Assembly (NCBI GenBank): GCA_000435595.1
Contig: FR895425.1
Coordinates: forward strand, 14,273 to 78,272
DNA: 64,000 nucleotides
Origin: Firmicutes bacterium CAG:882
GTDB lineage: Bacteria; Bacillota; Clostridia; Lachnospirales; Lachnospiraceae
Direction: 5' to 3'
The position numbers were made by a program, and so were the translations under genes. This document shows positions 12,501 through 58,419 of this stretch, one piece after another. The notes under the pieces were generated by a model. The model had not been told where the DNA came from, made no database searches, and saw nothing but the letters and a program-made list of their open reading frames with translations. Numbering within the stretch: the first letter of the stretch is position 1; every line of letters begins with the position of its first letter.

Positions 12501-13057
12501 TAAAACAGTTTCTCGACCACTATCTCGAGAATGTTTCATCCGAGGCGGCTTCAATTATAAAGCGCAGATGTGGTGCGGACGAGCAGGACAGCTTGAGAGC
12601 GGTTCTTGACGGTTATAATGCAAGATATACAGGACAGCGTAAGGACATTATTTTAAATCGACGCACACAGTCAATCGTAAGGTACATTTACGGACTGTCT
12701 ACATTCGATGACGCAGAGATTGTGTCGGGATTATCTAAGCTCGTCACGGATATATATATAGATGACTGGCGCGACGGAATGCTTGAGAACTTTAAAAGAG
12801 GCTGGAATGAGTTCTGTGATGAAATCGAGAGTGAACATTCCGCCGGAAGCGGCACCGGGATAGAAAAGCTGCTCCTGGAAGGTCAGGATCAGAACCTGCT
12901 TGACGGCAGTGACACAGACGACAACAGCACAAGCTATTTTTTAAAGAATGCAATAAGGGAAGCAATAGATGAGTTCGGTGACAGCCTTGATACCAAGGAG
13001 AAGGTCGCCGTGCTTGCGAGAGTGCTCGCCGAGCTTGTCGCCGGAGAAAATACATAG
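9587..13057 (+). CDS. sspC: large P-loop ATPase, DUF499/BrxC-like (SspC-like)
   Basis: 1156 aa. Walker A GPYGKGKSHMLL matches the G-x-Y-G-x-GKSH loop of DUF499 ATPases. Lies between the DUF4007 and cysteine desulfurase genes. Confidence 0.6.
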   Translation: MLKDMVKIDKRFENSINLYLDIDNRNKIDSYVYTRSSQNIMDYYLDNIDNDRNHATMLIGPYGKGKSHMLLVLLDKVRSMEHPYLPIIISGTGDDLNQVFLIGLTDALKRARLEKLAPESYYSEAARRIGQWKCDFPDAYDRFKAELHKLGIGSVDDFTRELGRQSKKALGMFEQIYPVITSGSEFKPFLMVETVRIYEQIRDVLAREYGYSGLYIIFDEFSKYVEGHEKDTFAKDMKVLQDMCELAGRSGDGRIYLTCVAHKSIKEYDAKLSGEMKNAFRGVEARLDEVRFVVSSQNNYELIGNVIRKDNNALKRIRRIERYYQNAIKSYSFSCFSGLFDEDDFRKYVVEGCFPLMPLTAYMLLHISEKVAQNERSIFTYLSHDEKGSLCRIVEECTLDEADYGVTADTIYDYFKSLFRADGTDALIHNEWLKAEYALERAEDEDEKKVIKVIALIGIIDRPDEVSADMEHIACSLNITSEECSAIMDRLVERKAVIYRRRKHAYCFYNNVGVDIQAEIAGRAAKLPADADILGTLKSISELDYVLPKKYNQDFSMTRYFEYVFMTPEQISRLPKPSVLFEQRFSDGKIVAVVSEQPVEYDEQLFERLNDKRIVVLVPQMVFNQTDNIRKYIAARELIKDKAFIDENAVLEQELVNYCDDAAYEVNRYLEEAFDTESGMCRVYHANEKYAGGFRHSMTFNMFLSSIMMDYYDNAPIVNNELINRQNISAQNKKARNKIVDMILSNADCSEFLKGTSPESTIYRAVLVNTGVCGGGNIESGCERVIMEIDRFIAQCDDNRCSFKVLYDRIMGMGYGTRKGIIPIYISLCLSRLHDKPVLSFKEKEVELDSGTLGNVNDAPGNYYLYVEHKSIEKQNYINELKKLFGAGTGQDDDRGVLTGILRWFRALPQAASNIGRDARCDENMAAKLKKLCSMLRRQDYNPHDFLFTELPAGVGADKGDYVSAIDELVRLKQFLDHYLENVSSEAASIIKRRCGADEQDSLRAVLDGYNARYTGQRKDIILNRRTQSIVRYIYGLSTFDDAEIVSGLSKLVTDIYIDDWRDGMLENFKRGWNEFCDEIESEHSAGSGTGIEKLLLEGQDQNLLDGSDTDDNSTSYFLKNAIREAIDEFGDSLDTKEKVAVLARVLAELVAGENT

Positions 13058-13073
13058 AATCGGGGAGATACAG

Positions 13074-14231
13074 ATGAGTGTAATTTACCTTGACAATGCA
13101 GCGACCACCTATCCAAAACCGGAGGGTGTCTATGAACAGATGGATAAAGTCAACCGCAGTCTGGCGTTTAACGCCGGACGTGGTTCTTATGCTCTGGCGC
13201 AGCAGTCGGCAGTTATCATTGACAATCTCAGAAGAGAATTATTGCGCATTGCGAATGCGATGAATGTAGCAGAGGTCGTACTGTCGGCTTCTGCTACATT
13301 TGCATTGAATCAGATAATCGGCGGACTGGGTATGAGGGCGGAGCAGTATGTGTATATATCGCCTTATGAGCACAATGCCGTTGTTAGAACACTTTACAAT
13401 CAAAAAATATACAGAGATGAAGAGAACTGCACGCATATTATTGTCATGCCTCTTCTGCCGGACGGGGGAATCAATGAGGAAAGGCTTCTGTACGAATTCA
13501 GCATACACACACCATCGTTCGTGTTCATGAGCAATGTGAGCAATGTAACCGGTTACATCCTTCCTGTGGAGAGGATTGCGTCCGCAGCCAAGGCATACGG
13601 TGCCACCGTTGTCGTAGACGGCTCACAGGCATTAGGCCTTGTTCCTTTTGACATGTCGGCATCAGACGTGGATTTCTATGTGTTTGCCGGACACAAGACA
13701 CCTTACGGTCCGTTCGGAATCGGCGGTTTCTATATGAAAAACGGAAGGAACCTCGACACATTCATAGCAGGCGGCACAGGAACAGATTCTCTCAATGTCG
13801 GCATGCCGCTCGCGGGTACGGTACGTTATGAACCGGCAAGCCCGAATGTCATAGCGGCAGCAGGGCTGCTTGCCGCTGTAAAAGAACTCACGACAGATGA
13901 GATAGCACACCGCCTGGAGCATGAGAAGAAACTTACTGAATATCTTGTAAACGGAATGCGCAAGATACCGGGCATCAGGCTGTATCTTGCGCCTGCACAG
14001 TCGCATGTCGGAATAGTCGCTTTCAATCTTGCGGGCTACAAGGCCTCCGACATCGGAATGATTCTCGATGCGGATTACAATATTGCGGTTCGCACAGGCT
14101 ACCACTGTGCTCCGCTTATACATGAATATTTGGACGACAGAGAATACCTTGGAGTTGTGAGAGCAAGCATAAGCATGTTCACGGGTTATGATGAAGCGGA
14201 TGCGCTGGTCGAGGCACTGGGGGAGATTTAG
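13074..14231 (+). CDS. sspA: cysteine desulfurase (class V aminotransferase, SspA/DndA/IscS-like)
   Basis: MSVIYLDNAATTYP N-terminus and PLP-lysine region FAGHKTPYGPFGIGG. GGGGAG RBS before the ATG at 13074. The ORF track starts earlier, at 12969, inside the sspC 3' end. Confidence 0.8.
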   Translation: MSVIYLDNAATTYPKPEGVYEQMDKVNRSLAFNAGRGSYALAQQSAVIIDNLRRELLRIANAMNVAEVVLSASATFALNQIIGGLGMRAEQYVYISPYEHNAVVRTLYNQKIYRDEENCTHIIVMPLLPDGGINEERLLYEFSIHTPSFVFMSNVSNVTGYILPVERIASAAKAYGATVVVDGSQALGLVPFDMSASDVDFYVFAGHKTPYGPFGIGGFYMKNGRNLDTFIAGGTGTDSLNVGMPLAGTVRYEPASPNVIAAAGLLAAVKELTTDEIAHRLEHEKKLTEYLVNGMRKIPGIRLYLAPAQSHVGIVAFNLAGYKASDIGMILDADYNIAVRTGYHCAPLIHEYLDDREYLGVVRASISMFTGYDEADALVEALGEI

Positions 14232-14243
14232 GAGGATGAGAAG

Positions 14244-16535
14244 ATGGATTTAAAGTTTGCAGAGATAAGAAATATTAATCAGTTATGCAATTTAGAAAGT
14301 AAAGGAAATAACAATGAAAATGTACCGCTGAATGTAAATATTCCATATTACCAGAGACCATACAAATGGGATAATACAAGAATTGGTAATCTAATTACAG
14401 ACTTTTATGATAATGAAGAAAATGAGAATGAAGATGAGGGATATTTTGCTGGTTCGGTTGTTATGGTTAAAGGAGAAAGCGGAAGATTTGAGGTTATTGA
14501 CGGGCAGCAGAGAATCACGACACTTTTTTTAATGAATTATCTGAGATTTTTGCTTATTAGAGGATATATTGAGCTGATAATAAAAACCAAAAAAATGTCT
14601 AAAATCAAGACACAAATTGATGAGCTTATTGATACAGCGGTTAATTTGTTTGATAAGGAAAAAATTATAAAATTACGTAATGTAAGCAGTGGAATAGATA
14701 ATTATATCAGCGATATTGAAAATGATGGACATGATGCTGAAAAAAAGGACAGCATATGGGATGCATTACTTGAATATTACGAGAAAGAATTAGGTTTGCC
14801 AAAGAGAAATTTTACTAATATTGAAAGTTATAAAAGGGAATGTTATCTGGAAAACAAGAAATTTCTGGCGAATGTAGGACTGACACTAAGGTACAGTAGA
14901 AACAGTTACAATGAAAAGCTTAAAGAAGCTTTATGCAGAGCTGTAATACTAATGCAGAGTGATGATATCAATCCGTGTTTTACAATGTGTTGTTTTGAGA
15001 AAAATTCAGTGTTTAAGAGTGTAGTAACAGAACAATATATGAATGCTATGAAATATATATATGATAATATTGTCACCGCATATATAGTCGGTGAAGAAAA
15101 ACCGGTTGAGTATATTGTAAAGCTAGAAAATGCAATGAAAAATATATTGGATAATATTAATTTTTGCGTTGTGGTTACGGGCAGAGAAAAGGATGCATAT
15201 ACATTATTTGAGGTATTAAATGATAGAAATTTCCCGGTTGAAGATTTGGAATTAATTAAGAATCTTTTTTACAAATATTACTGTAAAAATAGCGAAAACA
15301 ATGATAACACGGATTATTTCATTGAAAAGGCGGATACAAAATGGGGGGAAATATTTAGTGACACAATAGGCAAGGAACAGTCAAAACTTATTTCATATCT
15401 TGCTGCACAATATTTTACAGCGGATGGAAGACTCAAGTACAATGATAATGAGAGATATAGGGAGGCAATAGAAAAACAATACCTGAACAGAAAACAGCGA
15501 TATGATGGAGAAGCATTGTTAAGTGATATATGTGTTTATGAAATGCTTGAAATTATATTAGATGAATTTGATTTTAAATATCAGAAAAAAGCTGAAAATG
15601 TCATAAAAGCAGAGAGAGAAAATTCAAAATCAATTACATACAAAGCGTTAAATTTGTTCAATGCACTTAAATTGTACGGAGTAATACCTGCAATTACCAA
15701 TATTATACTTAAGAAGTTTTTGGAAAAAAATCCTATTAACAGATGGACTGGTGGGGATTATATTACTGCATTTAGAAAGTATGTACAGGAAATAAGGGAT
15801 GACAGAGAAAATAACAATACAGATTTTGCGGAGATTCACAGTGTAGCTTATGATTTCTGGCGTTTTGCACTGCTTGCACAAAATTCGGACAAACCAAGAA
15901 ATATAGCAAAAGACTATATCTCGAAAAATTATGTATCAAATTCTGACTATTCTTTAAAAGTCACAAGTCAGGAAGCAGATGTGTTGAATGAAGAGTTCAG
16001 AAGATGGATTAACGCATGGAAATATGGAAATGAAATTTCCCAGCTGAAGGTTAAAGTACTTTTTATTAATTTATTTAATTCAACTAAAGAGGGAAATACA
16101 CTTATATTCAACAAAACCGGCACAAATTTTAAAACGGATAAAATACAGCTTGATCATTTAGAGCCGGATAAAACCAATGCAGTTGCAAGTGAAAAGTATT
16201 TTGAACCTTCATCTAAGCTGCCAAGAGAAACATATACCGATAGTCTCGGTAATTTCATGATTATGGATGCAGGCAGTAACAATGACAAGAACACAATTCC
16301 GTTGCAGGATGCTCTTGAAATTTATGATAATATGGCTGGTGGTCATTGGCTGATAAAAGAAATTCATGACCTGTTTTATGAGAATGAATGTGGTGTAGAT
16401 AAGAACATTGATGGAAAAAAATACAGAATTCCGAATGAAGAATTTTTCATCAGAAGAAAAAAGAGATTGATATGTTATTTTAAGGCTATTTTGACTAAAA
16501 AGCTTGGCGATAATAAGGTGGAATTTGAACAGTAA
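14244..16535 (+). CDS. sspE: DUF262 (ParB-like NTPase, DGQQR motif) plus C-terminal DUF1524/HNH-like nuclease; SspE-like PT-sensing restriction protein
   Basis: RFEVIDGQQRITTLFL in the N-terminal domain. C-terminal QLDHLEPDK His-Me finger-like motif. 763 aa. Directly follows sspA. About 28-30% GC. Confidence 0.75.
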   Translation: MDLKFAEIRNINQLCNLESKGNNNENVPLNVNIPYYQRPYKWDNTRIGNLITDFYDNEENENEDEGYFAGSVVMVKGESGRFEVIDGQQRITTLFLMNYLRFLLIRGYIELIIKTKKMSKIKTQIDELIDTAVNLFDKEKIIKLRNVSSGIDNYISDIENDGHDAEKKDSIWDALLEYYEKELGLPKRNFTNIESYKRECYLENKKFLANVGLTLRYSRNSYNEKLKEALCRAVILMQSDDINPCFTMCCFEKNSVFKSVVTEQYMNAMKYIYDNIVTAYIVGEEKPVEYIVKLENAMKNILDNINFCVVVTGREKDAYTLFEVLNDRNFPVEDLELIKNLFYKYYCKNSENNDNTDYFIEKADTKWGEIFSDTIGKEQSKLISYLAAQYFTADGRLKYNDNERYREAIEKQYLNRKQRYDGEALLSDICVYEMLEIILDEFDFKYQKKAENVIKAERENSKSITYKALNLFNALKLYGVIPAITNIILKKFLEKNPINRWTGGDYITAFRKYVQEIRDDRENNNTDFAEIHSVAYDFWRFALLAQNSDKPRNIAKDYISKNYVSNSDYSLKVTSQEADVLNEEFRRWINAWKYGNEISQLKVKVLFINLFNSTKEGNTLIFNKTGTNFKTDKIQLDHLEPDKTNAVASEKYFEPSSKLPRETYTDSLGNFMIMDAGSNNDKNTIPLQDALEIYDNMAGGHWLIKEIHDLFYENECGVDKNIDGKKYRIPNEEFFIRRKKRLICYFKAILTKKLGDNKVEFEQ

Positions 16536-16556
16536 TTAAAAAAGGAGGCAGTGTAA

Positions 16557-16707
16557 TGCAAAAACCCGACGAAAGATTATTGAAGACCGTCATGTTTGAA
16601 ATACTTCATCTTGAACGGAAAAATCTCAGAAGCAGAGCAATGACGGATCAGAAAATGGTGGAGGAGATTGGGAAGGTTATCTCGGAGAATATTAAGCTAT
16701 GTAAATA
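16557..16707 (+). CDS. small hypothetical protein (50 aa) coupled to the downstream ATPase
   Basis: Strong RBS AAGGAGG 7 nt before the ATG at 16557. TAA stop abuts the next ORF. Not in the ORF track because it is under 60 aa. Confidence 0.4.
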
Positions 16708-16728
16708 ATGGAGGCGGAGAGGGTACGA

Positions 16729-18768
16729 ATGAAGTTTAAAACACTCAGAATGAAGAATTTTATGCGTTATAAAGGAATAAATGAGATTAATTTCAGTTGT
16801 GACGAAACGCATAATGTTACGGTGATATTGGGGGATAACACTGTAGGAAAAACAACGATTGCTCAGGCGTTTAGATGGTGTCTGTATGGTGCGATTATGG
16901 CTGAACGCGGAAAGAAAGAATCAGATTATCAGCTTCTGAACAATGATGCGCTTGCAAAACTGGATGCCAATAAGAAAGCTTCTGTTTTTGTGGAGATAAT
17001 AGCCGTGGATAGCGAAAGGCTGTATACCATCCATCGTGAAGTTGAATATATGAGGGTGTATCCTAAGTTCATTGCAAAAGAGTCATACAAGACATTGAAA
17101 ATGTTTATTTCAGATATAGACAGTCCTGATATCAGGCGTGAGGTGGAGCCCGGACCTAATTACAATAAGATAAATGAGCTTATAAATGAACTGTTTCCTA
17201 AAAATCTTTCACATTATTTTCTGTTTGATGGTGAGAGATGGAGTGATTTTTCGATAAATGGTGTCAGGGAGAACATTAAAGAATCAGTACATATTTTAAC
17301 CGGACTTTCTGCCTACAAGTCCGCCATGTATCATCTGAAGGATATGGGAGACAATTCAGTTATAAAAAAGTTCAGAAAAAATATTCAGGGAAAAGGCAAT
17401 GTGTATGATGATTATGAGCGTGAGCAGACCAGACTTGAACGTGAAGTGGAAAAATTACAGAAACAGATAGAAAGTATCGATGCCAATATCAGTCTTTGCA
17501 ATAAAAAATGCGATGAGATAGAGTTATATCTTGAGGAAAACAAGGATACGGAACAACTGCAGACGGCATATAAACAGTCTCAGAGAATGCTGAGGGCACA
17601 GGGGGAGAGATACTTAGCCAACTATAAAACTTTTATTTCGGAATACAATTCATGTGCATACAGACTGTTCGCCGGACCGCTTATCGAGGCTTCATTAAAA
17701 ATGGTCAAATCTGTGGCAGGTGAGCGCAGGGATATTCCACACATGAGGCAGGCGAGCATTGATTATATAATCAGAAGCGGAAGATGCATCTGCGGGACAC
17801 CGATAACGGAGGGGTCGTATGCTCTCGAATGCCTGCTCGAACAGAGAAATTATCTTCCGCCTGCCGATATGGGTTCTCTGCTCGGAGAATTTGAAAAGAC
17901 CGCTAACCGATGGAAAAGGGTTGATGACGAACTGCCAGACGATGCGGCAAGGGTTGATGAGAGCGCAAGGGATTATGAGGAGACAATCATTCAGCTTCAG
18001 AAAATGGAAAATAAGATGAATGAGAATATCGATTTTGCAGAGAAGAGAGCACAACTTAGGAGATATAAGGATGAAGCAAACAAGGCTGCAGTGAAAAAAG
18101 GTGAGATAAAGGGACTCATATCATCATATCAGACTCGAATACAGAGTATAGAACTCCAGATGAAGAATCAGGAAATAAAGAATGCCGAAAATGAAAAATG
18201 GAGAAACAAGCTGGGGCTTGCGGAGGCTGTATACGATAAATTATCAGCGGATTTTTCGGAGCGGGAGAAAAAGATATTTTACGAATTGAATGAAGAAATT
18301 CAGGCGAATTTTTCGCGTATGTTCAATGCGAAAGATAAAAGAATCCGGCTCTCGGAAAACTATGAAATTCAGATGTGCTATAAGACCGACATAGGCTATC
18401 AGGAAGAAAAGAACCTGTCGGAAGGAGAAAAGGTAGCAAGAAATTTTGCATTTATTGTGACAATAATGGATTACAGCACACGAAAGAAGAATGAGTATAA
18501 TAAAGCTGACTCAATCGTTGAGGATAAGGATGATGATTGCAATGATGCGCTTCCTATTGTGCTTGATGGACCATTCTCAAAACTCGGCGAGGAAAATATC
18601 TCTCTGGTGGCAAATGTGCTTCCGAAGGTATCGGAGCAGGTCATAGTATTTATGCTCAGAAAAGACTGGGCGTACACGGGACTTGATGAGTATGTCGGAG
18701 CGGAGTACTCGATTGACAAAAATCCTGAAGAAAGCTTTGCGTCGATAAGAAAGGTGGACAGAGGCTGA
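16729..18768 (+). CDS. SMC/DndD-like ABC ATPase (AAA_23 N-terminal head, coiled-coil middle, C-terminal head)
   Basis: N-terminus MKFKTLRMKNFMRYKGINEINF...ILGDNTVGKTTIAQAFRWCLYG (Walker A). Long charged coiled-coil middle. C-terminal LPIVLDGPFSKL (Walker B/D-loop). 679 aa, like DndD. Confidence 0.7.
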   Translation: MKFKTLRMKNFMRYKGINEINFSCDETHNVTVILGDNTVGKTTIAQAFRWCLYGAIMAERGKKESDYQLLNNDALAKLDANKKASVFVEIIAVDSERLYTIHREVEYMRVYPKFIAKESYKTLKMFISDIDSPDIRREVEPGPNYNKINELINELFPKNLSHYFLFDGERWSDFSINGVRENIKESVHILTGLSAYKSAMYHLKDMGDNSVIKKFRKNIQGKGNVYDDYEREQTRLEREVEKLQKQIESIDANISLCNKKCDEIELYLEENKDTEQLQTAYKQSQRMLRAQGERYLANYKTFISEYNSCAYRLFAGPLIEASLKMVKSVAGERRDIPHMRQASIDYIIRSGRCICGTPITEGSYALECLLEQRNYLPPADMGSLLGEFEKTANRWKRVDDELPDDAARVDESARDYEETIIQLQKMENKMNENIDFAEKRAQLRRYKDEANKAAVKKGEIKGLISSYQTRIQSIELQMKNQEIKNAENEKWRNKLGLAEAVYDKLSADFSEREKKIFYELNEEIQANFSRMFNAKDKRIRLSENYEIQMCYKTDIGYQEEKNLSEGEKVARNFAFIVTIMDYSTRKKNEYNKADSIVEDKDDDCNDALPIVLDGPFSKLGEENISLVANVLPKVSEQVIVFMLRKDWAYTGLDEYVGAEYSIDKNPEESFASIRKVDRG

Positions 18769-19289
18769 TGGCTGATTTTGAATTTTTTAAAAAGCAGTTT
18801 GAATTTAAAGGAAAGCACTCAAGAATGGTGTCTGAACTTTGTGTTGCTAATGATTTTGAGCATACATTTTTTAGAAGGATTATTGACGTGTATGTATTTG
18901 CAGCAATAATAGGTATCCGTCTTGACAGAAAAGCTTCGGAAGATTATTCACCGGTGGAGACAAAAAGTATTTTTCCGGAGCAGATGATAAATGCCAAGGA
19001 AGACTTGGATTTCATAATGCAGATGATGATAATGTTAGATTCGGGTCCGGGAACTACTGCTGAGGACAGAGTAAGGGAAGCCTTTAGAGGTGCACAGACT
19101 AAGGAAGAGTATGACAGGCTGATGGGAATTTTCAATGACTATGTGAGAGGTGGAGTTGAAGAACTTTACGAAAGACTTGTTGTCAGAAAGCCTGATTCGG
19201 ATGGCGGATACTACGACGAAAGAACCGCTAATCTTATGGCGCTTTATGATAGGCTTGTTCCGAGGAATATTTCAAAAATCACAAAATAA
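18768..19289 (+). CDS. hypothetical protein (173 aa), translationally coupled to the DndD-like ATPase
   Basis: TGATG stop/start overlap with the upstream gene. No motif I can recognise. Predicted mostly helical. Confidence 0.5.
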   Translation: MADFEFFKKQFEFKGKHSRMVSELCVANDFEHTFFRRIIDVYVFAAIIGIRLDRKASEDYSPVETKSIFPEQMINAKEDLDFIMQMMIMLDSGPGTTAEDRVREAFRGAQTKEEYDRLMGIFNDYVRGGVEELYERLVVRKPDSDGGYYDERTANLMALYDRLVPRNISKITK

Positions 19290-19328
19290 TGCTTTACTTT
19301 TTTAAATATGTGGGGTATAATAAACATA

Positions 19329-19445
19329 CGTTATATCATACCAAGCGATAAACGGTTACAACAATAAGGTCCCGCCGCTGGCGGTGTACCTCAAAGCTCT
19401 AATCCCACTTAAAGTGAATACTTTAAGTGGGATTATCTATTTTAA
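19329..19445 (+). ncRNA. tracrRNA: tracrRNA (anti-repeat, nexus-like hairpin, terminal hairpin, T-run)
   Basis: ttatatcataccaagcgataaacggttacaacaa is 31 of 34 identical to the CRISPR repeat on the same strand. It is followed by taaggtcccgccgctggcggtgtacc (hairpin) and aatcccacttaaagtgaatactttaagtgggatt (hairpin), then ctatttt. TATAAT at 19316-19321 sits about 8 nt upstream. Confidence 0.7.
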
Positions 19446-19634: not shown

Positions 19635-22600
19635 ATGGAGGAAATGAAGCAGACAGGCAGAAAAAATGAAGCACCTAAGCTGACGGATTTGAATTACAGA
19701 ATTGGGCTTGATATTGGTATTGCTTCTGTAGGCTGGGCGGTGCTTGAGAACAACTCTCATGACGAGCCGTTCAGGATTATTGATTTGGGTGTCAGAATTT
19801 TTGATACCGCAGAGCAGCCTAAGACGGGTGCATCACTAGCACTTCCAAGGAGGGAAGCACGTTCAGCAAGAAGGAGAATAAGAAGGCGCAGGGACAGGAT
19901 AGAACGCATCAAGAAGCTTTTTCAGGCTGAAGGGCTTATAAATATCGATGAGTTTGAGGCTCGTTACAAAATAGCAGGACTTTCTGATGTTTACAAGCTG
20001 AGATATGAGGGGCTTGACAGGAAGCTTACAGATGATGAACTGGCACAGGTATTATTACATATTGCAAAGCACAGAGGATTTAAGTCGACAAGCAAGGCAG
20101 AAGAAGCGGAAAACGAAAATGACGCAGCAAAGAAAAAAGAAGCAGGGGCTTTAAAGAAGGGTATAAGCAATAATAAAAAGCTTATGGAAGAAAAAGGATA
20201 CAGGACGGTTGGAGAAATGATGTATCTTGATGAAAACTTCCGTACAGATTGTCCATGGAATGAAAATGGCTACATACTTACACCTCGCAATAAGTCCGGC
20301 GATTATAAGCATACCGTTTTAAGAGATATGCTTGTAGATGAAGTAAGAGAGATATTTAAGTCTCAGAGAAGTCTTGGAAATATTCACGCTTCCGAAGAAC
20401 TTGAGAATGCATATCTTGATATTATGCTCAGCCAGCGTTCATTTGATATGGGACCGGGTGCTCCGAGCAAGTATGCGATGGAGGGATTTGAGGACAGAGT
20501 AGGATTATGTACCTTTGAAGGTAAGAATGGTGAGAAGCGTGCAGCAAAGGCAGCATATACCTCAGAACTTTTTGTGGCATTGGAGAAGATAAATCACACC
20601 AAGATTGTGAGTGATGATGGAGCCACAAGATTTTTGACGACGTATGAACGCAAGAGCATTATTGAACTTATGCATAAGCAGCAGACTGTAAAGTATGCGG
20701 CAGTGCGTAAGGCGATTGGCTTAGCGGAGGAGGACAAATTCTACAACCTTAACTACAGTCCGAAGGCTGGAAGCAAAAAGTCTCCTGAAGATACAGATTT
20801 TGTTAAACTTGAAAACTATCATAAGATACGCAAGGCTCTTGGAGAAGACATAGTTTCAGAACATTTACCTGCTGAAAAGATAAAGCTGTATGACAGTATT
20901 GCAACTATACTTACACTGTTCAAGAATGATGACAGCCGAATTAAGAGATTTATCGAACTGGGGATTGGTGAGGAATGCTTTGACGGGCTCCTTTCATTAT
21001 CACCAAGCAAATTTCATAACCTTTCTCTGGTTGCAATGGGGAAGATAATTCCGTTTTTGCTTGATGGCAACACCTATGACAAGGCATGCGAACTCGCAGG
21101 GTATGATTTTAAGGCAGATAATAAAGGCGAGAAGTCTGTTCTGCTGAAAGGAAAAAATATAACGGATATGGTGAATGATATTACCAATCCGGTTGTGAGA
21201 CGTTCTGTATCTCAGACAATAAAGGTTATAAATGCAATTATACTTGAGTATGGAAGTCCGCAGGCGGTTAATATTGAGCTTGCAAGGGAAATGTCAAAGA
21301 ACTTTGATGAAAGACGAAAGCTCAAGTCTGATATGGAATCACGCGAAAAAGAAAACAATAATGTCATAAAGCGTGTAAAAGAATATAAGCTGAATCCAAC
21401 AGGTCAGGATATAGTTAAGTTCCGCCTCTGGGAGGAGCAGGACAGAAGATGCTTATATTCAGGTGAGAAGATTGATATAAATGACCTTTTTTCAAGAGAT
21501 GGCGGTTATGACGTTGACCACATTCTTCCGTACAGCATCACATTTGATGATACATATCGCAATAAAGTACTTGTAAAAGCATCTGAGAACAGGCAGAAGG
21601 GAAACAGAACACCTTATGAGTATTTTATGGCTGAGAAGGATGATGATGAATGGAATGTTTACGAGACTTTGGTTCGAAATACAGTCAAAGATTATAAGAA
21701 GGTGCTCAAGTTACTCAAGAAACATATAACAGAGGATGAAAAGAGCGAATTTAGGGAGCGAAATCTTACTGATACAAAATATATTACCAGAATCATCTAC
21801 AATATGATACGTCAGAACCTTGTGTTAAAACCATATCTTAGTCTTGAAAAAGAACGCAAGAAACAGGTCATGGCTGTAAATGGTTCCATAACACACTATC
21901 TCAGTAAGAGATGGGGACTTGAAAGCAAGGATAGACGTACAGACACACATCACGCACAGGATGCAGTTGTCATCGCCTGTACAACTGATGGAATGATAAA
22001 TAAAATATCGCGATATTCCAAGGGACGAGAGCTACTTTATTCAAGAGGCTTTAAGTTTGTAGATGAAGAAACAGGGGAAATACTTTCGCGCGATAATTTT
22101 ACCCGTGAGGAGTGGGACGAGAAGTACGGGGTGAAAATCCCTATACCGTGGGAACATTTCAGGGATGAGCTTGATATCCGTATGTCAAGGTACAACGGAA
22201 CAGGTGATGACTCAATCGACAAAACAACGCCGAGGGATTTTATTTTGTCACACAGGGATGCGCACAAATGGATAAATTACCCTGAGTGGATGTTTGTCGA
22301 AGGAAGACCGGGACGTAGAGGAGTGCTCGACGGAATTTTTGTTTCCAGAATGCCGAAGCATAAAGTGAGTGGTCAGGCACATGAGGAGACGGTTCGCTCG
22401 GCGAAGTATTATAATGATGGTGGCAGTGTATTTGAGAGTGGTGGATATGTAGTTACCAAAAAATCAATTCAGGACATCAAGCTAAAAGACGGGGAGATAA
22501 AGGAGTTCTTCAATCCGGACAGCGACAGATTACTTTATAACGCTTTGGTTGACAGACTTAATAAATTTGAAAACGATCCAAAGAAGGCTTTCGCGGAGCC

Positions 22601-23162
22601 ATTCTATAAGCCAAAGGCGGATGGCACTCAGGGACCTATCGTCAAAAAAATCAAGGTGTTCGAGAAGCAGTCATCAGGAGTGTTTGTCAGAGATGGAAAG
22701 GGTATAGCAGCAAACGGTGCAATGGTTAGAATTGATGTATTCTGTGAAGAAGATAAGGGCAAAAAGAAGTACTATTTTGTACCGATCTATACAGCGGATG
22801 TTGTAAAGAAAAAACTGCCTGACCGTGCTGCAACAGCCAACAAGCTTATATCTGAATGGCGTGTGATGAAGGAAGAAAATTTTATTTTTAGTCTGTATTC
22901 AAGGGACTTGATTTATATTGAGAGTGATAAGGGAGTACAGGTTAAAGATATAGATGGTAAAATCAGTAAACCAGTTAATTTATTTGCATATTATTTGGGA
23001 GCAGATACATCTACAGCGAGCATTTCGGGTAAATTGCATGATAGTAGTGCTAATTTTAGAAGCATTGGTATTCAGGGGCTGAGGCGATTTGATAAATGTC
23101 AGGTAGATGTATTGGGAAATATTTCATTTGTGAATAAGGAAAAACGTATGCCGTTTAATTAA
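19635..23162 (+). CDS. cas9: Cas9, type II-C
   Basis: RuvC-I IGLDIGIASVGWAV. Arg-rich bridge helix RREARSARRRIRRRRDRIERIKKLF. HNH DVDHILPYS...NKVLVKASENRQKGNRTPYEY. RuvC-III HHAQDAVVIACTT. 1175 aa. Confidence 0.95.
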   Translation: MEEMKQTGRKNEAPKLTDLNYRIGLDIGIASVGWAVLENNSHDEPFRIIDLGVRIFDTAEQPKTGASLALPRREARSARRRIRRRRDRIERIKKLFQAEGLINIDEFEARYKIAGLSDVYKLRYEGLDRKLTDDELAQVLLHIAKHRGFKSTSKAEEAENENDAAKKKEAGALKKGISNNKKLMEEKGYRTVGEMMYLDENFRTDCPWNENGYILTPRNKSGDYKHTVLRDMLVDEVREIFKSQRSLGNIHASEELENAYLDIMLSQRSFDMGPGAPSKYAMEGFEDRVGLCTFEGKNGEKRAAKAAYTSELFVALEKINHTKIVSDDGATRFLTTYERKSIIELMHKQQTVKYAAVRKAIGLAEEDKFYNLNYSPKAGSKKSPEDTDFVKLENYHKIRKALGEDIVSEHLPAEKIKLYDSIATILTLFKNDDSRIKRFIELGIGEECFDGLLSLSPSKFHNLSLVAMGKIIPFLLDGNTYDKACELAGYDFKADNKGEKSVLLKGKNITDMVNDITNPVVRRSVSQTIKVINAIILEYGSPQAVNIELAREMSKNFDERRKLKSDMESREKENNNVIKRVKEYKLNPTGQDIVKFRLWEEQDRRCLYSGEKIDINDLFSRDGGYDVDHILPYSITFDDTYRNKVLVKASENRQKGNRTPYEYFMAEKDDDEWNVYETLVRNTVKDYKKVLKLLKKHITEDEKSEFRERNLTDTKYITRIIYNMIRQNLVLKPYLSLEKERKKQVMAVNGSITHYLSKRWGLESKDRRTDTHHAQDAVVIACTTDGMINKISRYSKGRELLYSRGFKFVDEETGEILSRDNFTREEWDEKYGVKIPIPWEHFRDELDIRMSRYNGTGDDSIDKTTPRDFILSHRDAHKWINYPEWMFVEGRPGRRGVLDGIFVSRMPKHKVSGQAHEETVRSAKYYNDGGSVFESGGYVVTKKSIQDIKLKDGEIKEFFNPDSDRLLYNALVDRLNKFENDPKKAFAEPFYKPKADGTQGPIVKKIKVFEKQSSGVFVRDGKGIAANGAMVRIDVFCEEDKGKKKYYFVPIYTADVVKKKLPDRAATANKLISEWRVMKEENFIFSLYSRDLIYIESDKGVQVKDIDGKISKPVNLFAYYLGADTSTASISGKLHDSSANFRSIGIQGLRRFDKCQVDVLGNISFVNKEKRMPFN

Positions 23163-23177: not shown

Positions 23178-24080
23178 ATGGGATACCGCAACATAAAAAT
23201 AGATAGTTCTATAGGATTACATATAAAAAATGAACAATTAGTTATAGGCGATAAGAATATCAGTTTTCCTTTAGAAGATATTAATTGTGTCATTATAGAA
23301 AATCAATCTGTTACGGTATCCACATATATGCTTCAAGAGTTTGCAAAATATGGAATCGCATTATATGTATGCGATGAGAAACATTTACCTAATGCTGTGC
23401 TTCTGCCTATGGTAAAGCATAGCAGGCATTTTAGAATGCTTACCAAACAGATTGAGGTGGGAAAGCCTCTTATTAAGCGGCTGTGGCAGCAGGTTATTGT
23501 TTTTAAAATAAGAAATCAGGCATTGTGTCTTAAAGAGCTTGGACTTGATGGGCATGAAAAACTTCTTTCAATGACAAAAGAAGTGCAGTCGGGTGACAAG
23601 ACACATGTTGAGGCGAAAGCTGCGGCATATTATTTTCGTGTTTTATATGGTGAAAACTTTACCAGATCAGATGAAAGTATTGTAAATTCGGCGATGAATT
23701 ATGCTTATGCGATAATCAGAGGTCTGATTGCAAGGTCAATCGTGTGCTATGGTCTGGAGCCTTCATTGGGGATGTTCCATCACAGCGAATTAAACAGTTA
23801 TAATCTGGCAGATGATATGATTGAAGTATTCAGACCACTGGTTGATTTGTACGTGGCAAGTCATTTTGATATTTCAGAGGTTGATGCGGATTTAACCCCT
23901 CAGATAAAAAGAGATTTGTTTAATATTATTAACTATGATATGTCGGTGAAAGGAGAGAAACGCATTATCAGCAACTGTATTGAGATGCTTGTGTACAGCT
24001 ATAGTGGAGCCATTCAGGGAAACAGAACAGATTTGGAACTTCCCGAATTGATACCGTTGCAGGTGCATAGCTATGAATAA
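23178..24080 (+). CDS. cas1: Cas1
   Basis: 300 aa type II Cas1 directly downstream of cas9. Conserved acidic and histidine residues in the C-terminal half. Confidence 0.9.
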   Translation: MGYRNIKIDSSIGLHIKNEQLVIGDKNISFPLEDINCVIIENQSVTVSTYMLQEFAKYGIALYVCDEKHLPNAVLLPMVKHSRHFRMLTKQIEVGKPLIKRLWQQVIVFKIRNQALCLKELGLDGHEKLLSMTKEVQSGDKTHVEAKAAAYYFRVLYGENFTRSDESIVNSAMNYAYAIIRGLIARSIVCYGLEPSLGMFHHSELNSYNLADDMIEVFRPLVDLYVASHFDISEVDADLTPQIKRDLFNIINYDMSVKGEKRIISNCIEMLVYSYSGAIQGNRTDLELPELIPLQVHSYE

Positions 24081-24393
24081 ATTTATGAGATTGTTGGTGT
24101 TTTTTGATTTACCTGTTGTTAAGGACAGAGATAGAAAAGTTGCTGCTAAATTTCGCAGATTTCTTCTGAAAGATGGATATGTTATGGTTCAGTGGTCAGT
24201 ATATTCGAGACTTTGCAATGGTACGGATTCTATCGAGACTCATAAGCAAAGATTAAAGCAGAATTTACCGCATAAGGGGTCTGTGCGTTGCCTTGTATTG
24301 ACGGAAAAACAATATTCGTCCATAGATATTCTTTTAGGAACGTCTACATTTCATGATATGGATGAATCATCTGATTTAATAAATATTTTTTGA
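24073..24393 (+). CDS. cas2: Cas2
   Basis: 106 aa. Overlaps cas1 by 8 nt. MNKFMRLLVFFDLP N-terminus typical of Cas2. Confidence 0.9.
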   Translation: MNKFMRLLVFFDLPVVKDRDRKVAAKFRRFLLKDGYVMVQWSVYSRLCNGTDSIETHKQRLKQNLPHKGSVRCLVLTEKQYSSIDILLGTSTFHDMDESSDLINIF

Positions 24394-24446
24394 AAAAAGA
24401 GTATTATGCAATGTGAAAATTAGGATTAACAATTATTTTTTACATG

Positions 24447-24486
24447 AAAAATCCCCGTGAACATATATAAACACGGGGATTTTTCG
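24447..24486. terminator. bidirectional hairpin terminator between cas2 and the CRISPR array
   Basis: aaaaatccccgtg...cacggggattttt, a symmetric A/T-flanked GC-rich stem. Confidence 0.6.
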
Positions 24487-24490
24487 TTCC

Positions 24491-24592
24491 CTATTATATC
24501 ATACCAAGCGATAACCGGGAACAACAACATATGAGGAATTAGAGGAACAGGGCAGACTATTATATCATACCAAGCGATAACCGGGAACAACA
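24491..24592. CRISPR. minimal CRISPR array: two 36-bp repeats, one 30-bp spacer
   Basis: Repeat ctattatatcataccaagcgataaccgggaacaaca at 24491-24526 and again at 24557-24592. Spacer acatatgaggaattagaggaacagggcaga at 24527-24556. On the minus strand each repeat carries the extended -10 TGaTATAAT, which implies antisense (minus-strand) crRNA transcription. Confidence 0.8.
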
Positions 24593-24725
24593 CGACAAGA
24601 GACCCTTTTGTGAAAGATTAGTTTACATTTTTGTTGTAAATCTTTTTTTTTTGTATTAGAATAAAATAGATGTAAAAATATAGTAAAGAAGAATATAAGA
24701 AAACAAGAAATGAGGACGTTTTGTT

Positions 24726-26516
24726 ATGGATGCTGTATCAGTAACGCTGTTGTGCCTTGGGCTGTTTAGCGGAATTGCACTTTTCCTGTATGGAATGAGT
24801 GTGATGGGTGACGGTCTTAAGAAGGTTGCGGGAAATAAGCTTGAGACGCTTTTGTACGGGTTGACAAGCACACCGATTAAGGGAATTTTGCTGGGTGCAG
24901 GTGTTACGGCTATTATTCAGTCATCATCGGCTACTTCGGTTATGGTAGTCGGCTTCGTTAATTCGGGTATGATGAAGGTTATACAGGGAATTGGTATTAT
25001 TATGGGTGCCAATATCGGAACAAGTATAACCGGATGGATTTTGTGTCTTTCGGATATTCAGGGAGCGGGTGGTATAGCAGCTCTTTTGTCATCGTCGAGT
25101 ATAGCGGCAATTGTAGCTATAATTGGTCTGCTTGTGAGAAATCTTTCAAAGAAGGAGTCTCATAAGGCAGTCGGTGATATCATGTTTGGATTTACGATAC
25201 TTATGATAGGTATGTCAACCATGAAGGAGGCGATGTCTCCGCTTCAGAACAATCCTTTTTTTATGGGAATGCTTACGAAGTTTTCCAATCCGTTTCTTGG
25301 TATTCTTTTAGGTATAGTTATCACGGCAGTGCTTCAGAGCGCATCGGCATCCATAGGTATTCTACAGTCGGTTGCAATGTCGGGATTTCTGCCTTTTTCG
25401 GCGGCACTGCCTATAGTCATGGGTATTGGTGTCGGGGCGGCATGTCCGGTTCTCATGAGTGGTATGAGTTCTAACAAGAACGGTAAGAGAACAGCACTTG
25501 TGTATCTTTTTAATGATTTGTTCGGAATGATTATATGCGGAACTCTTTTTTACACAATTCAGGCGATTGTGACAAGAGGAGGTCAGTTCGCATTTATGGA
25601 TGTTGAGATGAATTCTGTCTCAATAGCCCTTCTCAATACTGTATATCGAGTTGTCACAATCGTGATACTCGCACCGTTCATCAAGCAGATTAATAAGCTT
25701 ATGTTCTGGCTTGTAAAGGACACCGAGGATGAGGTTGAGGATCAGGCAGACTTTGACCTGCTTGAGGAGCGTTTCTTAAGAAACCCTGAACTTGCACTTA
25801 CTCAGGTAGGTGTTGTAATGAACGGAATGGCAAGAAAGGCACAAAAGAATGTCATGAGGGCATTTGACCTTATGGATGATTATTCTGTTGAGAAGTACAA
25901 TATCATTCAGGAAAAAGAGACAATCATCGATAAATATGAGGACAAGCTTGACACATATATGATGAAGATTACGGCTGTGGGACTTAACAAGAGCCAGACA
26001 GTGCAGAACTCCAAGTATCTCCATACAGTCAGTGATTTTGAACGTATTGCTGATCACGCCTGCGGTATATCGAGGGCAGCCAAGGAAATCGTGGAGAAAA
26101 AGATTAAGTTTTCCGATGATGCGCGGCGGGAGCTTGCAATTCTGTACAGTGCTGTTAAGGAAGAACTGGATATGACTGTTAAGTCATTTACTGAGGATGA
26201 TATAGATATGGCAAGACAGGTGGAGCCGCTTAGAATCACAGTGAGAATGTTATGTGCAGAGCTTAAGCGAAACCACATTACTCGTCTTCAGAGCGGTAAC
26301 TGTGATGCAATCAATGGATTTGTTTTTAATGATCTTTTGACGAATCTGGAGAGAATTGTTGCGCATTGCTCCAACGTAGCCGTTGCCATGATGGAGTTTG
26401 AATCGGATGATTTCAACACCCACCAGTATCTGAAGGAGCTCAGAGATTCAGAGGATTCCGGTATTGTAAAGGATGTCAACTATTATTCTGAAAAGTATTC
26501 GGTGGATAAGAAATAA
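24726..26516 (+). CDS. Na/Pi cotransporter family protein (NptA-like with C-terminal PhoU-like domain)
   Basis: GAGVTAIIQSSSATSVMVVGFVNSGMM repeat motif of Na/Pi cotransporter II. 596 aa. Confidence 0.75.
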   Translation: MDAVSVTLLCLGLFSGIALFLYGMSVMGDGLKKVAGNKLETLLYGLTSTPIKGILLGAGVTAIIQSSSATSVMVVGFVNSGMMKVIQGIGIIMGANIGTSITGWILCLSDIQGAGGIAALLSSSSIAAIVAIIGLLVRNLSKKESHKAVGDIMFGFTILMIGMSTMKEAMSPLQNNPFFMGMLTKFSNPFLGILLGIVITAVLQSASASIGILQSVAMSGFLPFSAALPIVMGIGVGAACPVLMSGMSSNKNGKRTALVYLFNDLFGMIICGTLFYTIQAIVTRGGQFAFMDVEMNSVSIALLNTVYRVVTIVILAPFIKQINKLMFWLVKDTEDEVEDQADFDLLEERFLRNPELALTQVGVVMNGMARKAQKNVMRAFDLMDDYSVEKYNIIQEKETIIDKYEDKLDTYMMKITAVGLNKSQTVQNSKYLHTVSDFERIADHACGISRAAKEIVEKKIKFSDDARRELAILYSAVKEELDMTVKSFTEDDIDMARQVEPLRITVRMLCAELKRNHITRLQSGNCDAINGFVFNDLLTNLERIVAHCSNVAVAMMEFESDDFNTHQYLKELRDSEDSGIVKDVNYYSEKYSVDKK

Positions 26517-41339: not shown

Positions 41340-41610
41340 TATTTTTGCCATAAAGTATTATCCGGTCATCGCAGATGTGCAATACAAAAATTGCAATACT
41401 TTTCACATAAGGCAGGTCTTCTGACTCAAGATATGGCATCCGCATCTGTCTTCCCGGAGCAGAGCTGCCCCAGTGACTTTTTCACCGGCACTTGGTGCTT
41501 AGCGGACTAATCTTTTACAGCGACGGGCTCGTTCAGGATTATCACCTGATTCCCTCTTAGCAGCCGGAATACCGGCTGAACCATTATGTCCGGCATTCTG
41601 TATACACAGA
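41340..41610 (-). promoter_or_regulatory. cobalamin (AdoCbl) riboswitch
   Basis: Minus-strand sequence aagagggaatcaggtgataatcctgaacgagcccgtcgctgtaa matches the GGGAA..GGTG.AAATCC..GCCCG core. agtcactgg downstream matches the B12 box (GCCACTG) with one mismatch. Confidence 0.5.
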
Positions 41611-58334: not shown

Positions 58335-58419
58335 GCAGTCGTGGCGGAATTGGCATACGCGCTAGACTAAGGATCTAGTCCATATTGCTTGGGTGCGGGT
58401 TCAAGTCCCGCCGACTGCA
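58335..58419 (+). tRNA. class II tRNA with long variable arm, tRNA-Leu. The anticodon loop reads cuAAGga.
   Basis: Perfect 7-bp acceptor stem gcagtcg/cgactgc. D-stem gcg/cgc. Anticodon stem ctaga/tctag. T-arm gcggg-ttcaagt-cccgc. 85 nt. No encoded CCA. Confidence 0.75.

Follow-up and report, generated by a model that had tools for sequence, protein, structure and literature searches.

Introduction

Many CRISPR-Cas systems of type II-C (CRISPR, short palindromic repeats that are clustered and regularly interspaced) have been described with promoters embedded in their repeats (PMC7665894, PMC12080349). In Campylobacter jejuni NCTC11168, the repeats end in GGTAAAAT, the primary 5′ ends of the CRISPR RNAs (crRNAs) lie at spacer position 5, and RNase III together with the trans-activating crRNA (tracrRNA) makes the 3′ end only (PMC3656092). 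For Neisseria meningitidis, a review describes repeat-embedded promoters and crRNA 5′ ends that arise by initiation (PMC5965381). In Clostridium (Ruminiclostridium) cellulolyticum H10, transcription of the array runs opposite to that of the cas genes, the repeat closes with nine nucleotides (nt) that resemble an extended -10 element, and the crRNAs carry 23 to 26 nt of spacer (PMC7038990). In type II-C systems the oldest, first-transcribed repeat is often mutated near its 5′ end with its promoter kept, and spacers are added at the last-transcribed repeat (PMC12080349). Here we examine the CRISPR locus of Firmicutes bacterium CAG:882 in a stretch of 64,000 nt (contig FR895425.1, positions 14,273 to 78,272; hereafter the window, in whose numbering all positions are given). 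An earlier reading of the window, which we call the original prediction, had placed there a two-repeat array whose repeats carry an extended -10 promoter on the minus strand.

By every feature examined in its sequence, the locus belongs to the type II-C group with promoter-bearing repeats. It is an ordinary type II-C example from a human-gut Clostridia bacterium, with an array shrunk to one old spacer. By analogy, we consider it highly probable that its crRNA is initiated from a promoter within the repeat. The original prediction had taken this mechanism from N. meningitidis and C. jejuni, where published work supports it (PMC3656092, PMC5965381); for the window, homology would extend the same activity to its boxes.

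The repeat unit and its -10 box

The two-copy repeat of the original prediction is real. In the frame used there, two identical 36-nt copies (24491-24526 and 24557-24592) lie 66 nt apart (24491-24601, plus strand), and a matching repeat pair was held by 0/100 dinucleotide-preserving shuffles of the sequence. The boundaries of a two-repeat array were fixed through strain relatives, which are contigs from human-gut metagenome assemblies that share with the window the encoded Cas9, Cas2 and Na/Pi transporter as well as the flanking genes. The suggested check for longer arrays in such relatives was run and found arrays of up to 54 or more repeats. Those of 10 to 54 repeats give the true unit, ATTATATCATACCAAGCGATAACCGGGAACAACAAC on the plus strand and GTTGTTGTTCCCGGTTATCGCTTGGTATGATATAAT in the minus-strand or crRNA sense, and show that the earlier frame was wrong by 2 nt. 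The array in the window thus consists of a repeat at 24493-24528, a spacer at 24529-24558 and a repeat at 24559-24594. The -10 box, TGATATAAT on the minus strand at 24493-24501 and 24559-24567, is not set 2 nt in from the repeat edge, as had been thought, but forms the last 9 nt of the repeat.

The two repeats differ in this frame. Repeat 1 (24493-24528, minus strand) is canonical, cas-proximal and predicted to be transcribed last, and it would supply the repeat part of the only crRNA. Repeat 2 (24559-24594, minus strand), cas-distal and predicted to be transcribed first, is a degenerate "extra" repeat whose crRNA-sense positions 1-2 are CG, not GT. The same CG variant closes the array in every same-species contig that reaches the cas-distal array end, and repeat 2 keeps its TGATATAAT (24559-24567) intact. 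Between them lies the single 30-nt spacer (24529-24558, minus strand; crRNA sense AGTCTGCCCTGTTCCTCTAATTCCTCATAT).

Conservation of the box was assessed in a Cas9-profile scan with one genome per species, which yielded 80 loci at 28 to 84% Cas9 identity spanning Lachnospiraceae, Roseburia, Synergistales, Armatimonadota, Campylobacterota and Alphaproteobacteria. An array finder recovered 36-nt repeats in most of the 80 loci, and every array recovered had the same orientation and lay downstream of cas2. In the 42 distinct consensus repeats, the T, A and final T of the hexamer (TAnnnT; repeat positions 31, 32 and 36) were invariant (42/42), and TG stood at positions 28-29 in 37. Position 30, the "n" of TGnTATAAT, carried 0.3 bit, and the repeat middle was poorly conserved. 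The box was kept as TGGTAGGCT in high-GC lineages, was present in all Lachnospiraceae/Roseburia-type relatives found (28/28), and was intact in 391 of 396 non-terminal repeats of same-species arrays. Firmicute repeats, including those of the window (TATGaTATAAT), have TA before the box, giving TATGnTATAAT; this TATGn extension matches the TRTG "-16 region" of Gram-positive promoters. The pattern of conservation across the 42 repeats reads as the signature of an extended -10 promoter that is general to type II-C, in keeping with the element originally proposed at the repeat end. RNase III is believed to take off the 3′ part of the repeat, so that binding of the mature guide by Cas9 cannot explain why the box is conserved. 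Spacer positions 5-8 showed no purine enrichment in 989 spacers, a result that does not speak against the promoter but is simply uninformative. Within arrays, the box is altered naturally in rare cases (L089 repeat 21, TGATGTAAT; L088 repeat 27, TAATATAAT; L099 distal repeat, TGATACAAT), and these offer ready-made cases for following expression of a spacer behind a damaged box.

The tracrRNA gene and the transcribed strand

A local-alignment scan found one degenerate copy of the repeat outside the array, on the plus strand upstream of cas9 (19330-19365). This copy has the surroundings of a tracrRNA anti-repeat. It is preceded by a predicted sigma-70-type promoter (19293-19321, plus strand; TTTACT, 17 nt, TATAAT; 10/12 match) whose -10 ends 9 nt before the anti-repeat, and it is followed by ATAAGG, a short nexus-like hairpin, a 16-bp terminator hairpin (19400-19435) and a T-run. 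The predicted ends of the gene are 19328 and 19446 (plus strand). At gathering thresholds, Rfam matched no tracrRNA or CRISPR family in the window. The predicted repeat:anti-repeat duplex (-47.6 kcal/mol) comprises 9 bp, an internal loop, 3 bp, a second internal loop and 21 bp. Layout and fold are conserved in 15 Firmicute loci, with changes on both sides in 7 of 23 predicted pairs. Since the anti-repeat has the sense of the array plus strand, it pairs only with a minus-strand array transcript, from which we deduce that transcription of the array and of the cas genes uses opposite strands. The minus-strand orientation of the original prediction is thereby borne out.

In the window's clade (window, 19330-19338; L006, L008, L028 and L042), the anti-repeat begins GTTATATC. 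Its antisense, TGATATAAC, has lost the essential last T of a -10 element while a G-U pair with the crRNA is kept. We considered whether the anti-repeat is mutated as a rule to kill an antisense repeat promoter, and rejected the idea: the change is confined to the window's clade, and most Roseburia-type relatives retain ATTATATC, a potential antisense promoter inside the tracrRNA gene.

Predicted transcription of the array

Read on the minus strand, the degenerate repeat (24594-24559) comes first, followed by the spacer (24558-24529) and then by the canonical repeat (24528-24493), AGGGAAC and a hairpin (24485-24446). No minus-strand promoter-like site was found within 400 nt upstream of the array. 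We propose that RNA polymerase, guided by the extended -10 TGATATAAT at the end of each repeat, would start 6 to 8 nt into the next spacer with no need of a leader promoter. The box of the degenerate repeat (24559-24567) is thus the predicted promoter of the single crRNA. Judged by the position of the -10 and by what occurs in C. jejuni and N. meningitidis, transcription would begin at about 24551-24554, with the G at 24553 the likely start. This is the same physical place as originally predicted, although it now lies 6 to 8 nt, not about 5, into a 30-nt spacer. The resulting RNA would carry about 25 nt of spacer followed by the canonical repeat (24528-24493), and the predicted guide of about 23 to 25 nt agrees with the earlier estimate of about 25. 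The canonical repeat would pair with the tracrRNA, RNase III could then cut on the 3′ side, and trimming of the 5′ end would be unneeded.

Only one productive unit would be left in this strain. The degenerate repeat has no upstream minus-strand promoter-like site, so an "extraneous" crRNA is unlikely to be made; its CG variant costs two guide-proximal pairs with the tracrRNA (-45.4 versus -47.6 kcal/mol). The cas-proximal box (24493-24501) has no spacer to express and points into a terminator. If it fires, it would do so into a hairpin 7 nt away, starting at about 24485-24487, at the foot of GAAAAATCCCCGTG...CACGGGGATTTTTC, and would yield a terminated RNA of only about 45 nt. On the plus strand, the same hairpin would end the cas operon before it reads antisense through the array. 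It is at this cas-proximal end that new spacers enter.

Acquisition polarity and collapse of the array

The history of the array was read from arrays at the same site in relatives, which hold 1, 2, at least 4, at least 10, 23, 29, 34, 38, 42, 50 and at least 54 repeats. Across 14 mapped same-species contigs, strains have spacers of their own at the cas-proximal end and spacers in common at the cas-distal end, which places the entry of new spacers beside cas2, at the repeat transcribed last. The window spacer is the cas-distal terminal spacer of L087 and L095 (23 repeats), L096 (50 repeats) and L101, and these contigs also carry the window's distal-flank variant ACAAGAGACCC. Compared with these sequences, the window array is a remnant left after inter-repeat recombination deleted all but the oldest spacer, and is not nascent. 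Four contigs hold a single degenerate repeat (L001, L004, L097 and L100), a state that cannot yield that of the window by acquisition because duplication would copy the CG variant, an argument that also favors deletion. A further contig, L099, has two repeats and has collapsed to a single spacer other than that of the window. The spread from 1 to 54 or more repeats at one site in one species points to repeated, independent collapse by inter-repeat recombination. Internal duplications of spacer blocks occur in some long arrays (L089 and L090). Avoidance of self-targeting was considered as a cause of collapse and rejected, since 0/287 same-species spacers match the 64-kb window outside the array, a search that covered these 64 kb only.

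Some relatives carry an insertion of about 690 to 770 nt inside the array, just before the terminal repeat (L088 6404-7118; also L085, L089, L091 and L093). It adjoins a truncated repeat and holds two small open reading frames (ORFs; 62 and 52 amino acids [aa]) that had no Pfam match. A spacer of L094 matches the L088 insertion perfectly (L088 6669-6698), and for this reason the insertion probably derives from a mobile element; the flank on the side of the protospacer-adjacent motif (PAM) is GTAACAGA. In the Logan contig L098 (1-2970), phage genes (portal and ClpP-like protease) are joined directly to the terminal repeat. This is probably an assembly join through a phage-matching spacer, in which case the PAM-side flank would be CCGCCTAC. 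Taken together, these two protospacers, both tentative, hint that PAM position 5 is a C (an N4C-type PAM).

The remnant state raises the question of whether the locus is a decaying, silent one, with a single ancient spacer and no known target, that confers no immunity even if its promoters fire. Arrays have shrunk to two repeats in the window and L099 and to one in four further contigs. The window spacer had no match in phage, viral or metagenome collections: its 24-nt guide part had no exact match in viral_contigs or metagenome_contigs, and a search of the phage collection gave partial matches at chance level only. In contrast, cas9, cas1 and cas2 are full length and 99 to 100% identical to those of strains with 23 to 54 repeats, and likewise intact are the tracrRNA, the two -10 boxes and, on the acquisition side, the canonical repeat with its flank; the locus can therefore, on this evidence, still express crRNA and acquire spacers. 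We judge a silent remnant to be unlikely, and in any case it concerns the present usefulness of the locus and not the mechanism.

The cas-proximal flank

Between cas2 and the array lies a perfect 14-bp inverted repeat (24446-24459/24472-24485) set between an A-run and a T-run. Its folding energy is -22.5 kcal/mol for the minus strand and -23.4 kcal/mol for the plus strand. As a structure, it bears out the adjacent bidirectional terminator (24446-24485) noted in the original prediction, and it would be expected to terminate transcription on both strands. The 7 nt that separate it from the cas-proximal repeat, GTTCCCT (24486-24492; AGGGAAC on the minus strand), are identical in all same-species contigs, and most Firmicute relatives carry AGGGAAC or a close variant of it. 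AGGGAAC is the reverse complement of repeat positions 7-12. We regard it, speculatively, as a candidate leader-anchoring sequence on the acquisition side.

A hairpin in this place is common to related loci. When the 60 nt after the cas-proximal repeat were folded and compared with shuffled sequence, 34 of 40 loci from Firmicutes to Alphaproteobacteria had a strong hairpin (z<-2) that begins 7 to 25 nt past the repeat (median, -20.2 kcal/mol; median z, -5.5). On the cas-distal flank, a strong hairpin was found in 5 of 31 loci (median z, -0.4). The stem sequences vary among loci (CCCCGTG, CCCTGCATAA, CCTAGAAAAT and GCCCGCATA), and in Firmicutes the hairpin is set between an A-run and a T-run. 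A published study of type II-C flanks analyzed the cas-distal side and leaves the cas-proximal hairpin unmentioned (PMC12080349). On the plain reading, the hairpin terminates the cas operon and in addition stops transcription from the orphan repeat promoter. It is possible, though on balance doubtful, that hairpin and AGGGAAC together form a hitherto undescribed functional module of type II-C loci, the counterpart of a leader. Such a module would silence the orphan promoter, avert collision between the cas operon and the crRNA promoter, and perhaps mark the site of Cas1-Cas2 integration. The ordinary alternative is that the hairpin is merely the terminator of the cas operon.

Weighing the promoter reading

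Several points count against reading the box as a promoter. The motif TGNTATAAT by itself does not exceed chance, with 4 matches in the window against 4.1 expected, so that what gives the box weight is not rarity but the fact that it sits at a fixed point of the repeat and is conserved from locus to locus. As read from the sequence, the repeat has no -35 element, and promoter strength would rest on the TG/TRTG extension. Because the compared repeats are phylogenetically related, the independent observations are fewer than 42/42 suggests. For this organism, sequence and analogy are the basis on which promoter use, start site and termination are predicted. Finally, the box end of the repeat adjoins the acquisition-side flank, and its conservation could in part serve recognition by Cas1-Cas2.

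This last point can be extended into a full alternative, in which the box is conserved mainly for recognition of the repeat end by Cas1-Cas2 and crRNAs come from a long precursor through RNase III and a 5′-trimming nuclease. Spacers enter cas-proximally, which makes the ATTATA end of the repeat leader-proximal; as is usual for type II, the two ends of the repeat are imperfectly inverted copies of each other (GTTGTAG...CTATAAT); and the AGGGAAC flank is conserved. However, the invariance is distributed as in a -10 element, with a fixed T, A and final T, a TG two positions upstream and a free base between them, and the box persists as TGGTAGGCT even in high-GC lineages. A long precursor would also lack a source, there being no minus-strand promoter-like site upstream of the array, and the same box initiates transcription in C. 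jejuni (PMC3656092) and, in the review's account, in N. meningitidis (PMC5965381). We therefore hold this alternative to be quite improbable as a replacement for promoter function, although the two roles of the box are compatible.

A plus-strand precursor of the type II-A kind, started in a leader located between cas2 and the array or produced when transcription of the cas operon reads through, would suit an array that lies directly downstream of cas2 on the strand of the cas genes and a weak plus-strand promoter-like match at 24468-24497, but it is effectively excluded by the sequence: its transcript would share the sense of the anti-repeat and could not pair with it, while the tracrRNA promoter, 5′ anti-repeat and 3′ terminator are all plus oriented and conserved in 15 loci; cas2 and the array are separated by a strong terminator; and, although the degenerate repeat and the oldest spacers would remain leader-distal in that orientation, the repeat would start with ATTATA, unlike any type II crRNA. 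We thus retain initiation from the repeat-embedded -10 box on the minus strand.

Gene content and neighborhood

The array begins 100 nt downstream of a cas9-cas1-cas2 operon on the plus strand. The operon consists of an intact cas9 of 1175 aa (19635-23162; TIGR01865, E=1e-246; HNH and RuvC domains), a type II cas1 of the NMENI subtype (23178-24080; TIGR03639, E=5e-83) and cas2 (24073-24393; TIGR01573, E=3e-23). Neither csn2 (type II-A) nor cas4 (type II-B) was found beside the operon by ORF map and Pfam/NCBIfam scans. The window Cas9 is 99% identical to P0001 of strain relatives, and the Cas2 protein is identical in 588 blocks of the public collection. The nearest named genomes by Cas9 are metagenome-assembled genomes of Eubacteriales, Clostridia and Lachnospiraceae (82 to 84% identity). 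In the PDB, the closest matches are chains of 1055 to 1154 aa (E=1e-263 to 1e-178), including 8uza/8uzb and 6kc8/6jdq, which we take to be GeoCas9 and Nme1Cas9, respectively, since the match table carries no organism names. Matches to SaCas9 (5axw; about 1e-77) and SpCas9 (1e-21) are weaker. On gene content and on Cas9 similarity to type II-C enzymes, the latter resting on similarity scores to solved structures, the locus is classified as a complete type II-C CRISPR-Cas9 system comprising a tracrRNA gene, cas9-cas1-cas2 and an array, as originally predicted.

On the far side of the array, a weak hairpin with a T10 run (24612-24658, plus strand) is terminator-like on the plus strand only; the interval 24595-24660 folds at -11.3 kcal/mol on the plus strand and -3.9 kcal/mol on the minus strand. 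It precedes the first gene 3′ of the array, which encodes a Na/Pi cotransporter (24726-26516).

The upstream neighbors of the CRISPR locus, by ORF map and profile scans, are Pbe/Dnd-like defense genes and include no cas genes. This island (12969-19289, plus strand) directly adjoins the locus. It encodes a class V aminotransferase (cysteine-desulfurase-like), a DUF262/GmrSD_N protein of 763 aa that matches PADLOC Orf5/HEC-06/SspE, a PbeC/DndD-like ATPase of 686 aa (E=2e-84) and a protein of 173 aa whose Dnd-associated match is weak, a gene set that suggests a phosphorothioation-type (Pbe/Dnd/Ssp-like) system. Elsewhere in the window, the sole Rfam matches at gathering thresholds were a cobalamin riboswitch (41394-41601, minus strand; 95 bits) and a tRNA gene (58335-58419, plus strand).

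Comparison with described systems

The mechanistic import of the locus is small, as promoters inside the repeats are already accepted to be common in type II-C arrays. What it adds is an uncharacterized 1175-aa type II-C Cas9 from an abundant human-gut Clostridia lineage, with tracrRNA and repeat defined, and a natural series of arrays at one site that shows the acquisition polarity of type II-C and repeated collapse to the terminal repeat. The comparison of about 40 loci further shows the -10 signature and the acquisition-flank hairpin conserved from Firmicutes to Alphaproteobacteria.

The window Cas9 matches PDB chains 6kc8/6jdq, presumably Nme1Cas9, at E=1e-182, and the Neisseria repeat box, TGCTACAAT, compares with TGATATAAT here. 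N. meningitidis 8013, as reviewed, resembles the locus in the window in having an operon of cas9-cas1-cas2 only and a 36-nt repeat ending in an extended -10, in an AAGG nexus region after the anti-repeat of its tracrRNA, and in crRNAs that arise from inside the array and run opposite to the cas genes, as predicted here (PMC5965381). Unlike N. meningitidis, the window's host belongs to Bacillota and not Pseudomonadota, its Cas9 is about 90 aa longer, its array holds one spacer, and the system is known from sequence.

C. jejuni differs in its box (GGTAAAAT) and in its much smaller Cas9; the window Cas9 matches chain 5x2g, which we assume to be CjCas9, only at E=2e-70. The box lies at the very end of the repeat in both systems (PMC3656092). 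As in window repeat 2, the first-transcribed repeat of C. jejuni has a 5′-terminal substitution that is not propagated, and C. jejuni spacers likewise enter at the transcription-distal end (PMC4283603). For type II-C more broadly, repeat 2 matches the mutated extra repeat and likewise has no upstream source of transcription (PMC12080349).

The features that the original prediction singled out as unusual, namely, that the host is a Firmicute, that no leader is recognizable and that a terminator lies alongside, are all ordinary for type II-C or already published. A missing leader is the normal state in type II-C, and the acquisition flank is the cas2-proximal one, where the terminator lies (PMC12080349). 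As for the host, the box is shared by all 28 Lachnospiraceae/Roseburia-type relatives, and C. cellulolyticum H10, a Firmicute like the host of the window, is a published precedent both for the box and for antisense transcription of the array (PMC7038990). The H10 data come from heterologous expression in Escherichia coli, where internal initiation was proposed, not proven, and the likeness drawn here follows the published description of that system (PMC7038990).

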